From positions 1-64,000 of IMG/VR virus record IMGVR_UViG_3300021399_000130: 64,000 bases of DNA. One strand, 5' to 3'. The stretch is from a virus (Duplodnaviria > Caudoviricetes). The notes under the pieces were generated by a model, which was given only the letters and a program-made list of their open reading frames with translations, was not told the origin of the DNA and did not search any database. Made by a program: the position numbers and the translations under genes. This document shows positions 52,116 through 59,643 of this stretch, piece by piece; positions within the stretch are counted from its first letter, which is position 1; every line of letters begins with the position of its first letter.

Positions 52116-52147
52116 ATAAATCCTCCCTTTAAAGGAGGATTTTTTTA
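52116..52147. terminator. Bidirectional terminator
   Basis: AAATCCTCC/GGAGGATTT stem. Confidence 0.8.
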
Positions 52148-53683
52148 TTGGTACCTGTTTGTTACGTTGCTAACTACACGGAATCTGAGAACTTTTTTAT
52201 AATATCTTGTCTCTCGCCCCCTCATAGTCCTTATATCAACATAATAGTCGTTTGGAATAAGGTCTTCTGTGTTGATAATGAAGAAGTTATTTAGAAATGC
52301 CCTTTCAACTGGCTGATATTCAAACACATCAAGTTCCCTGTTAGCATCCTTAACATAAAGTCTCCATTCCGCATTATCCAGGAGTTCCTTCCTATTCGTG
52401 GTGTATTCCTTCCTGAAATCAACGACAACTTCACGGATTTCACCCCTTTCAAGGTTTTCAGCGTCGTTTATGCCACTCACCTGGGGAACAGTCCTATCGG
52501 GACCGGCGGATTTACTTCCAATCGACAAGAAGTTTTCCCTGGGACTTACAACGAATTCCTGTTCAACATCAGCGATAGGCTGTCCGTCAAGTGAAAGATT
52601 TGACCACACATCATAATGGATTGTTTCAACTTCGAATTCATTGGGGTCGGGGGTCACTTCAACATAATAAAATCCCTTGCCGCCCTTTTTAACATCGTAT
52701 TCAGTCCCGTCAATGGTACATTTAACCCCCTCGTCAAGCGAAACCGGAGTACCTTCAATACCAGAATATAGATAAAGTCTGTTTTTCCTTCCGAGACAGA
52801 AATTCGCCCTGTCGTCAGCTATCGGGTCACAGTATTTACATTCTACAAACGGGTGGAAAAACGTATTTGTAAGGTCAGTGAAAAAAGACACATATTGCTG
52901 TGTATTCATCTTTACTCTTTCGAGATGAGGTGCATATGCCAACATCAGTCCATAATTATTGCCACTTTCAAGACAATCAAGCACGTATTTTGTAACATCT
53001 ATTTCGAGATTTTCAGCCCCGAAATCAAAGTGTTGCGTACCGATGACGATGCTTTCTTCACCATCAAGGTACTTTTGATACTCTTCAGTCAATTCTTCGT
53101 GGCTATAAACACCACCTTCAATGTCAATCCTTACACGCACTTCTGTATCGCCGGACATTACATACTGATAAAAGTAAGACGGGTGATTGTTGTCGATTTC
53201 TATTCTTCCGTTTTCATCCGGAATCATTTTGTCATTATCAACTTTCCAGCACCTGGCCCTCTGTGCGTAATACCAGTTCGATGCCATATCCTTGTATGCA
53301 CGGCTATGATTACCATTAACCCAGAAATCTGAAGCGTAATCAAAGCCCTTTCCCGCATCAAAATCCTGCGGAAGTTTATATAAAACAAGGTCAAAAGATT
53401 CAGCCCTTTCAACCGGCTCAGATGCTCTATGGTGGATTTCCTTGTCATACGGAAGCCCATCGACAGAGGCACAATTGGTCATTTTGAGGGTGCAGGAAAG
53501 TTTTGACGTATCGCTGAACGTACCATCAGCAATAAGTCCCCCTATTTCATTAACATCGAAATGTATGAGACCCCTGGATAGTTCTTTCCCATAATTTATC
53601 TCAAGAATTGGATTAAGTCCGGTATTCCATAATGAACCCCTGGTAATCGTATTTGTTTTATCTAAAAATATATGTCTGACCAT
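52145..53683 (-). CDS. Putative baseplate/structural protein
   Basis: Late motif 53703-53711; NTGLNPILE, SRGLIHFD, beta-rich C-terminus. Confidence 0.55.
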   Translation of the reverse strand: MVRHIFLDKTNTITRGSLWNTGLNPILEINYGKELSRGLIHFDVNEIGGLIADGTFSDTSKLSCTLKMTNCASVDGLPYDKEIHHRASEPVERAESFDLVLYKLPQDFDAGKGFDYASDFWVNGNHSRAYKDMASNWYYAQRARCWKVDNDKMIPDENGRIEIDNNHPSYFYQYVMSGDTEVRVRIDIEGGVYSHEELTEEYQKYLDGEESIVIGTQHFDFGAENLEIDVTKYVLDCLESGNNYGLMLAYAPHLERVKMNTQQYVSFFTDLTNTFFHPFVECKYCDPIADDRANFCLGRKNRLYLYSGIEGTPVSLDEGVKCTIDGTEYDVKKGGKGFYYVEVTPDPNEFEVETIHYDVWSNLSLDGQPIADVEQEFVVSPRENFLSIGSKSAGPDRTVPQVSGINDAENLERGEIREVVVDFRKEYTTNRKELLDNAEWRLYVKDANRELDVFEYQPVERAFLNNFFIINTEDLIPNDYYVDIRTMRGRETRYYKKVLRFRVVSNVTNRYQ

Positions 53684-53779
53684 CTTATAAACGTTCTACT
53701 ACCATAAATAGTTTGACGCCAGTAAATATATTTTTTTCTTTTTCCTTTCGTTTTACATAGATTTAGCTATTTATATAGT

Positions 53780-53871
53780 GAGAGCGGCGATTGCCCAAAT
53801 CACGTAATGCGTGGTCATAAGGTTAGCCGCAGGGGGACCTAGGCGCATATGGCCCCCTTTCTCTGCGTCTA
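53780..53871 (+). ncRNA. Candidate structured small RNA (two stem-loops, possible pseudoknot)
   Basis: GC-rich non-coding island just after CTATTTAT (53767-53774), with multiple complementary blocks. Confidence 0.5.
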
Positions 53872-53914
53872 TTGACTTCCGGACAAAATACCTTATATTT
53901 AGTTGTAGATTTTA

Positions 53915-54367
53915 TTGTTTATGACTAAAAATATCTGTAGTGAAGTATCATTGGAAAATCCATATTTCAAATTAAAAATCGGTACGATAAATAAAAAAAA
54001 TCCCACGACGTTCTATGTCGAGGGTGGGACATTCATCACTCCAGTAGAAGCAGAGGATGACGATATTTCATATAAAGAGAAAATGGCCAACGTTTATAAG
54101 GCAATGAGCCAGGGTATAATAAGGATTACAAACGAGGCTAAGAATATACAAAAAACATTCATAGCCAATATTGACGTGGCGGACGAGCGTATGAAAACCG
54201 GTAAGAAAACATATTTCACTTTCCAATATTATCTCCACCAAAACGGGGAGCCGGCACCATTTTCAAAAATAACGGAAGACGGCGAGAAATACACAAAGAT
54301 TGTTCTTGACAAGATTGAATATAGTCTCAAAGAAAACGGATTTGCAATAAGTAAAACAAAAAAATAG
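53915..54367 (+). CDS. Hypothetical protein
   Basis: Promoter TTGACT-N16-TATATT at 53872-53899. Confidence 0.65.
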   Translation: MFMTKNICSEVSLENPYFKLKIGTINKKNPTTFYVEGGTFITPVEAEDDDISYKEKMANVYKAMSQGIIRITNEAKNIQKTFIANIDVADERMKTGKKTYFTFQYYLHQNGEPAPFSKITEDGEKYTKIVLDKIEYSLKENGFAISKTKK

Positions 54368-59529: not shown

Positions 59530-59643
59530 ATTGTTTCTGTCTAATATATTATTCCGTTAAAATATAGCGTTTTCCTATGATAAAGGAAAGATTACGCCTT
59601 ATAGTATAAATAGTTTAAGGAATGAATAAATAAAAGGAAGCCG

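Follow-up and report, generated by a model that had tools for sequence, protein, structure and literature searches.

The divergent spacer between two uncharacterized phage genes encodes a structured RNA element of 83 nt on the plus strand (positions 53781-53863), matched by covariance model R1 at 92.6 bits (E ~1e-20). With moderate confidence, this element is read as an independent late small RNA of a T4-like jumbo phage, whose sequence layout suggests a self-contained transcription unit. The proposal of a novel late small RNA, originally made by a sequence-only reading of this DNA, stands in its main part: the element is non-coding, structured, on the plus strand and placed behind a motif that also leads structural genes. 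The H-type pseudoknot and the loop-loop contact that formed part of the same proposal find no support beyond the near relatives.

The window analyzed here (64,000 nt) covers the opening 64 kb of an IMG/VR virus record of 90,591 bp, whose completeness is put at 25%. Its genes include a T4 gp20-type portal, a family-B DNA polymerase, a tail sheath and BACON/LRR adhesin-like genes. The nearest cultured counterparts of the portal belong to Flavobacterium phages (31% identity). A Bacteroidota host is hinted at by the BACON domain, by one contig of a metagenome-assembled genome (MAG) described below, and by this nearest cultured portal. The phage collection gave no match to a nucleotide query or, by tblastn, to the 512-aa protein encoded next to the element, so the phage has no cultured close relative in that collection. 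The tetranucleotide GATC occurs once in the 90.6-kb contig against ~241 occurrences expected under a Markov model, while CATG is found at 0.36 of expectation and GCGC, CGCG and GGCC at ~0.6; judged from these counts, the depletion looks like strong avoidance of a GATC-specific host restriction system.

The spacer itself is 240 nt long and is flanked by the 512-aa gene (52145-53683, minus strand) and a 147-aa gene (p147; 53924-54367, plus strand), both of them without a match in Pfam or PHROG. Searching the PDB sequences with a profile built from the 512-aa protein family retrieved nothing. Within the spacer, the RNA island (53781-53863) stands out with 58% G+C against ~40% in its surroundings.

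The element is preceded on the plus strand by the late-type promoter motif CTATTTATA (53767-53775), which is invariant in all RNA-bearing relatives. The shorter form CTATTTAT (53767-53774), from which the proposal of late expression had started, was confirmed in the sequence. It occurs 13 times in the window against 4.6 expected, a number that none of 100 shuffles reached, and 18 times in the contig, where most copies precede an ATG on their own strand by 20-75 nt. Among the genes that the motif precedes are those of the tail sheath and the portal as well as an adaptor-like one, and because of this association CTATTTATA is probably a late promoter. The portal gene's own copy (59530-59613, minus strand) lies ~75 nt upstream of the ATG, giving a longer leader than that of most late genes. 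A divergent copy at 53704-53711 (minus strand) serves the 512-aa gene.

The copy at 53767 is the exception, as the next ATG is ~150 nt away and has its own TTGACT-16-TATATT site. The distance from motif to RNA start is fixed throughout the near clade, and transcription would begin ~6-8 nt downstream of the motif, near 53781. A sigma70-like TTTACA-16-TATAGT site that overlaps the late motif at 53752-53779 (plus strand) lacks conservation among relatives and is probably a chance occurrence.

Homologous copies were found in related phage contigs, 28 in all, 26 of them distinct, and the protein identity of the neighbouring gene falls to ~43-45% among them. The R1 scores of the copies range from 58 to 95 bits, apart from one divergent copy that reaches 38 bits. 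A 17-mer scan of IMG/VR returned only three close relatives besides chance matches; in these three contigs, whose neighbouring proteins are ~80% identical, the island is kept better than the remaining spacer and compensatory changes are already visible. The 512-aa protein has 964 homologs, and its profile recovered 50 IMG/VR loci. In 10 of the more distant loci (43-53% protein identity) the RNA is again flanked by CTATTTAT and by the TTGACT promoter that belongs to the 147-aa homolog. Of 30 stretches that a pattern scan picked out of JGI metagenomes, 22 were true copies and 8 were chance. A scan of 185,579 species genomes gave a single true copy, whose contig had been placed in the bin of an uncultured Bacteroidales MAG. 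The RNA is present once per genome in the 90.6-kb contig and in four relatives, including a 344.6-kb record estimated to be 93% complete.

Comparative evidence carries the secondary structure. Folded as a single sequence, the plus strand reaches -38.1 kcal/mol with z = -1.57, which is not significant (13 of 200 shuffles fold as well), and the minus strand is weak (z = -0.99). Covariation, the check proposed with the original reading, was scored on the 26 distinct sequences in an alignment fitted to R1: in this model-fitted alignment standard pairs fill 92.8% of the pair cells, 15 of the 21 pairs change on both sides, and the covariation score of 0.433 exceeds that of shuffles (0.211; 0 of 500 reach it) and that obtained when partners are slid by 1-3 columns (0.09-0.135). 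RNAalifold independently recovers the same four helices. Judged from these comparisons, the helices P1, P2 and P3 are real and selected, and not the product of chance pairing; all three correspond to hairpins that the sequence-only reading had drawn and that are now seen to be kept by compensatory changes.

The 5' domain (53784-53830, plus strand), supported by covariation and by RNAalifold, is a rod of three stacked helices. P1 pairs 53784-88 with 53826-30, and four of its five pairs change on both sides, as in the variants GCGGC/GCCGC, CUGGC/GCCAU and GCAAC/GUUGC; its support is under-counted because the model misaligns GCAAC/GUUGC. P2 pairs 53799-804 with 53810-15, with changes on both sides in five of six pairs. 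The segments originally proposed to pair, GCGGC with GCCGC and ATCACG with CGTGGT, are found in the window at exactly these P1 and P2 positions. Between them, P1b joins GCC (53793-95) to GGU (53821-23); two of its pairs are invariant and one varies one-sidedly, and since its pairs hardly vary the helix is uninformative either way. The internal loops CAA (53796-98) and CAUAA (53816-20; CAYAA across relatives) are near-invariant, as is the UA preceding the 3' strand of P1. Because of this near-invariance, the loops probably form a binding site for a protein or a ligand.

The pattern of variation also identifies the functional strand. A G-U wobble in P1b is kept in 24 of the 26 distinct sequences and a U-G in P2 in 25, which fixes the plus strand as the functional one and argues against a DNA cruciform. 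One- and two-base insertions and deletions between relatives rule out a coding frame. These observations bear on the idea that the element acts as DNA, as a protein-binding palindrome, a cruciform, an origin or a packaging signal. Its high G+C content within an AT-rich divergent promoter region, and the core of the P3 loop, a palindrome of the restriction-site type (GCGC, TGTACA, GTATAC or GTGCAC), are features that a DNA element might display. However, the conserved G-U and U-G pairs would become C-A mismatches on the other strand or in a cruciform, helix sequence changes freely while pairing is kept, and the promoter motif and the U-run frame the element on one strand only. We therefore give a role at the DNA level very little chance of being correct.

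Searches against known RNA families returned no family assignment, in agreement with the earlier failure to recognize the element by eye. No family of Rfam 15 (4227 models) matched the whole window at gathering scores; at E-values up to 10, the region 53600-54000 gave only a chance lncRNA match of 14.7 bits. Rfam searches of eight relatives gave no match on the RNA element, and ARAGORN found no tRNA or tmRNA gene in the 64-kb window.

The 3' part of the element, P3 with its U-tract (53831-53864, plus strand), resembles an intrinsic terminator. The stem pairs 53832-39 with 53851-57 through seven pairs and a bulge, and six of the seven pairs change on both sides; it corresponds to the originally noted segments AGGGGG-A-CC (53831-39) and GG-CCCCCT (53851-58), which are present as described. 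The loop (53840-50) has 11 nt and the tail reads UUUCUCU (53858-64). The window's U-tract is thus short and interrupted, with 5 T in 8, and a terminator scanner with a loop limit of 8 nt did not flag this hairpin. Among relatives the stem is followed by 4-8 U, and every copy ends in a hairpin and a U-run; most of the distant ones have P3 loops of 7-8 nt and long U-runs. P3 has the GC-rich stem with a U-tract immediately after it that defines an intrinsic terminator, a role missed by the sequence-only reading. From this arrangement we infer that transcription terminates at P3 and that the RNA ends at ~53860-53866.

In one clade (L033:1295-1340(-), L039, L074, L098 and L105:1965-2035), P3 has an A-run upstream as well as a U-run downstream, and R1 scores the P3 hairpin on the opposite strand too. 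The P3 of this clade is possibly a bidirectional terminator, which does not apply to the window's own copy.

The remaining proposed pairings fared less well than the hairpins. The 8-bp H-type pseudoknot would have joined TAGGCGCA (53840-47) in the P3 loop to TGCGTCTA (53864-71), both of which are present in the sequence. If P3 is a terminator, the second strand lies at or past the likely 3' end of the RNA. Among 13 near relatives 71% of the cells of this helix pair, a figure to be read with the fact that both strands are alternating purine-pyrimidine runs, which inflate chance pairing; the helix is absent from L085 and L087, and the distant clades have no equivalent. The alternative contact between the P2 and P3 loops is not supported either, since by eye, in the alignments, the P3 loop changes while the P2 loop stays the same, without compensation. 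As for the closing helix, GAGA (53780-83) and UCUC (TCTC in the DNA, 53860-63) are both present, and 94% of cells pair, with changes that are only one-sided, from G-C to G-U, and that speak neither for nor against the helix; beyond the near relatives it is not supported.

The distribution of the element across loci suggests how it behaves in evolution. Six loci (L023, L026, L037, L038, L040 and L043) have neither the RNA nor a second late motif and keep the TTGACT promoter. Because relatives without the RNA keep that promoter and lack the second late motif, promoter, RNA and terminator are, by this comparison, gained or lost as one module. In six other loci a different hairpin occupies the place of the RNA. 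In L051 and L066 (1384-1466(-) in both), what precedes the promoter of the 147-aa gene is a GC-rich hairpin, GCGUCAGUGC-UACG-GCACUGGCGC. L024, L025, L030 and L031 have a UUUUCUGGCCAGAAAA hairpin leader behind the late motif, and the product of the gene that follows it carries a P-loop-like GVFGVGKT motif. Judging from these replacements, the slot behind the late motif appears to exchange RNA modules.

The downstream neighbour is constant. A 147-aa homolog directly follows the RNA in every locus that extends far enough, and the module is always upstream of this gene's promoter and on the same strand. The upstream neighbour varies: L081 has another gene there, and in L075 and L074 genes have been inserted. 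In L029, L045 and L069 the 147-aa gene is inverted relative to the 512-aa gene. The 147-aa family carries the motif KIGTxDKKNP, and AlphaFold2 predicts an alpha/beta fold (pLDDT 93, pTM 0.86); comparison of this model with the PDB gave only weak, non-specific matches (YbjN/AmyR-like, TM ~0.4), and the protein had no atlas match.

The sequence-only reading had assigned the next gene a sigma70-like promoter of its own, and this site was found as TTGACT-16-TATATT at 53872-53899 (plus strand), a host-type promoter-like sequence outside the RNA. This early-type site is kept by all relatives, also by the ones without the RNA. Between the end of the U-tract and TTGACT there are ~8 nt in the window and 5-20 nt in relatives.

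The main rival reading is that the element acts in cis, as a leader or gate whose 5' domain would sense a protein or small ligand and set the P3 terminator, and so control late expression of the 147-aa gene, in the manner of a riboswitch or of a lambda PR'-tR' unit that an antiterminator releases. An aptamer-like conserved domain with a terminator directly after it is what such a gate would look like, the module keeps its place before the same gene and on the same strand while the upstream neighbour changes, and the same genome has other units of late motif, folded RNA and terminator placed before genes. However, by eye across clades, no conserved antiterminator pairs with either strand of P3, and a conserved independent promoter lies between the terminator and the reading frame and serves the gene alone in the relatives without the RNA.

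A candidate switch element was found in the distant clades only. Their copies carry an extra 5' leader of 35-45 nt with conserved AGAUUGGGAAAUAUGUU / AGAUUGGGAA (L027:1384-1418(-), L033:1376-1418(-), L035, L036, L042, L053, L068, L075 and L094), of which AGAUUGGGAA is partly complementary to CCCAAAUCU in the core and could act as such an element. The changes in this complementarity are one-sided or disruptive; in L036 and L042, GGG has become GAG with no compensation. In the window clade the leader is missing entirely. Taken together, these observations make a cis-acting gate rather unlikely. Two other interpretations of the leader were discarded: a scan of IMG/VR for AGAUUGGGAA as a general late leader gave mostly coding or chance matches, the true ones all being copies of this RNA, and the AUG of a mini-ORF in the distant-clade leader is not conserved.

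A further possibility is that the module insulates or occludes, in that late transcription ending at the -35 element would shut the early-type promoter and the RNA would be a by-product. The short distance between U-tract and TTGACT, and the constant placement of the module at this promoter, are in line with such a role. A by-product would not, however, be expected to retain a 50-nt domain with 9 covarying pairs, invariant loops and conserved wobbles, and this reading is distinctly improbable.

The independent small RNA is favoured over these readings because the module is gained or lost as a unit, because a promoter intervenes before the next gene and because inspection by eye showed no conserved antiterminator. 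As we picture it, a phage-modified RNA polymerase would start at the CTATTTATA late motif and transcribe ~83 nt. The first 50 nt would fold into the P1/P1b/P2 rod with its two near-invariant internal loops, as the covariation indicates, and transcription would stop at P3 with its U-tract, a few bases short of the next gene's -35 element. Late timing, like the start and end of the RNA, follows in this scheme from the motif and the hairpin. The released RNA would then act in trans late in infection, with the invariant internal loops and the exposed, self-complementary apical loop of P3 (through a possible loop-loop contact) as its likely working surfaces. As a side effect, the terminator would bar late transcription from the early-type downstream gene. 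In the 90.6-kb contig, sequences complementary to the P3 loop, to CACAAGGUUAG or to CCCAAAUC are no more frequent than expected by chance, and this search pointed to no trans target there.

The apex of the P3 loop shows a second kind of covariation. Its core in the window is the self-complementary GCGC (53843-53846, plus strand), and relatives have UGCGCA, UGUACA, GUAUAC, GUGCAC, GUGCGCAC or UAUGCGCAUA at this place. Divided into three symmetric pairs, the hexamer is complementary in 87% of cells; at its centre 16 sequences have CG, 9 have UA and 1 has UG, so that this position is always paired. The symmetric covariation score of 0.456 compares with 0.252 for shuffles, none of 500 reaching it, and in the minimum-free-energy folds of several relatives a 6-nt palindrome sits in a loop of 7-9 nt. 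Taken singly, the P3-loop palindromes are not improbable. Read from the alignment without a tree, there would have been at least three to four independent switches from CG to UA against one intermediate.

This pattern possibly reflects selection for self-complementarity, and through it a kissing dimer. It could also be mimicked by two-step CpG deamination or by a palindrome selected at the DNA level; comparison with genome palindrome usage gave no link to the P3-loop palindromes, GCGC being mildly depleted at 0.56 of expectation. In a more elaborate form, the element would be an RNA that is expressed late and associates with itself: kissing dimers or higher oligomers would arise through the palindromic apex, the 5' rod would bind a late phage protein, and the product would be a scaffold or sequestering particle. 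The loop would serve as a lineage-specific address that diversifies between lineages, so that co-infecting relatives avoid cross-pairing. This elaborate form is improbable as a whole. If true, it would place such a particle in virion assembly or late gene control, and we know of no RNA with a scaffold or sequestering role in T4-like phages. In either form, RNA-RNA association through the palindromic terminator loop is a simple hypothesis that can be falsified.

Several known systems share features with the element. Similar in anatomy are the lambdoid late-promoter RNAs, 6S RNA at PR' and StxS, in which a late promoter yields a short RNA with an intrinsic terminator (tR') immediately downstream; StxS of Stx phages, a short transcript of the lambdoid late promoter ending at tR', is a functional trans-acting small RNA (PMC7547250). 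The likeness stops at anatomy, as there is no similarity of sequence or structure between these RNAs and the one described here, the downstream gene here has its own promoter-like site, and the present phage is T4-like with no evident lysogeny. Transcriptional riboswitches and attenuators are built in the same order: a conserved folded domain, with invariant nucleotides in its internal loops, leads directly into a terminator hairpin and U-run. Unlike them, the element has no Rfam riboswitch match and, by eye, no conserved antiterminator, and the TTGACT-16-TATATT promoter stands between its U-tract and the ATG.

Loop-loop association has precedents in the HIV-1 dimerization initiation site (DIS), where GCGCGC or GUGCAC in a 9-nt loop mediates kissing-loop dimerization, and in the phi29 pRNA, which forms rings through loop-loop contacts. 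Like the DIS, the hairpins compared here have an apical core of 4-10 nt that changes between lineages and remains self-complementary, but the window's core is only GCGC in an 11-nt loop and its hairpin doubles as a terminator. The phage has a T4 gp20-type portal and not a phi29-type packaging motor, and the RNA differs from a phi29-type packaging RNA in having a single self-complementary loop and, by eye, no covariation between the P2 and P3 loops. ROOL and GOLLD are homo-oligomeric phage-associated RNAs (PMC12286853), and the present RNA is far smaller than either.

Parallels in architecture lie in the same contig, beyond the window. At least two further units, at contig positions 64,900-65,030 and ~70,170-70,300, consist of CTATTTAT, a structured RNA of ~100 nt, a GC hairpin, a U-run and a gene; TTTGAC follows the first of them. 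Their sequences are unrelated to the element, of which R1 finds a single copy in the contig. Together with the present element, such units suggest that making short, terminated late transcripts is routine in this phage lineage. To our knowledge, very few structured non-coding RNAs have been described in T4-like or jumbo phages, and we know of none from large uncultivated phages that apparently infect gut or rumen Bacteroidota. With a covariation-backed fold, a promoter-to-terminator unit, 26 distinct variants and contrasts of presence and absence, the element brings most of what direct testing requires, and short terminated late transcripts of this kind bear on how late transcription is organized outside the E. 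coli models.
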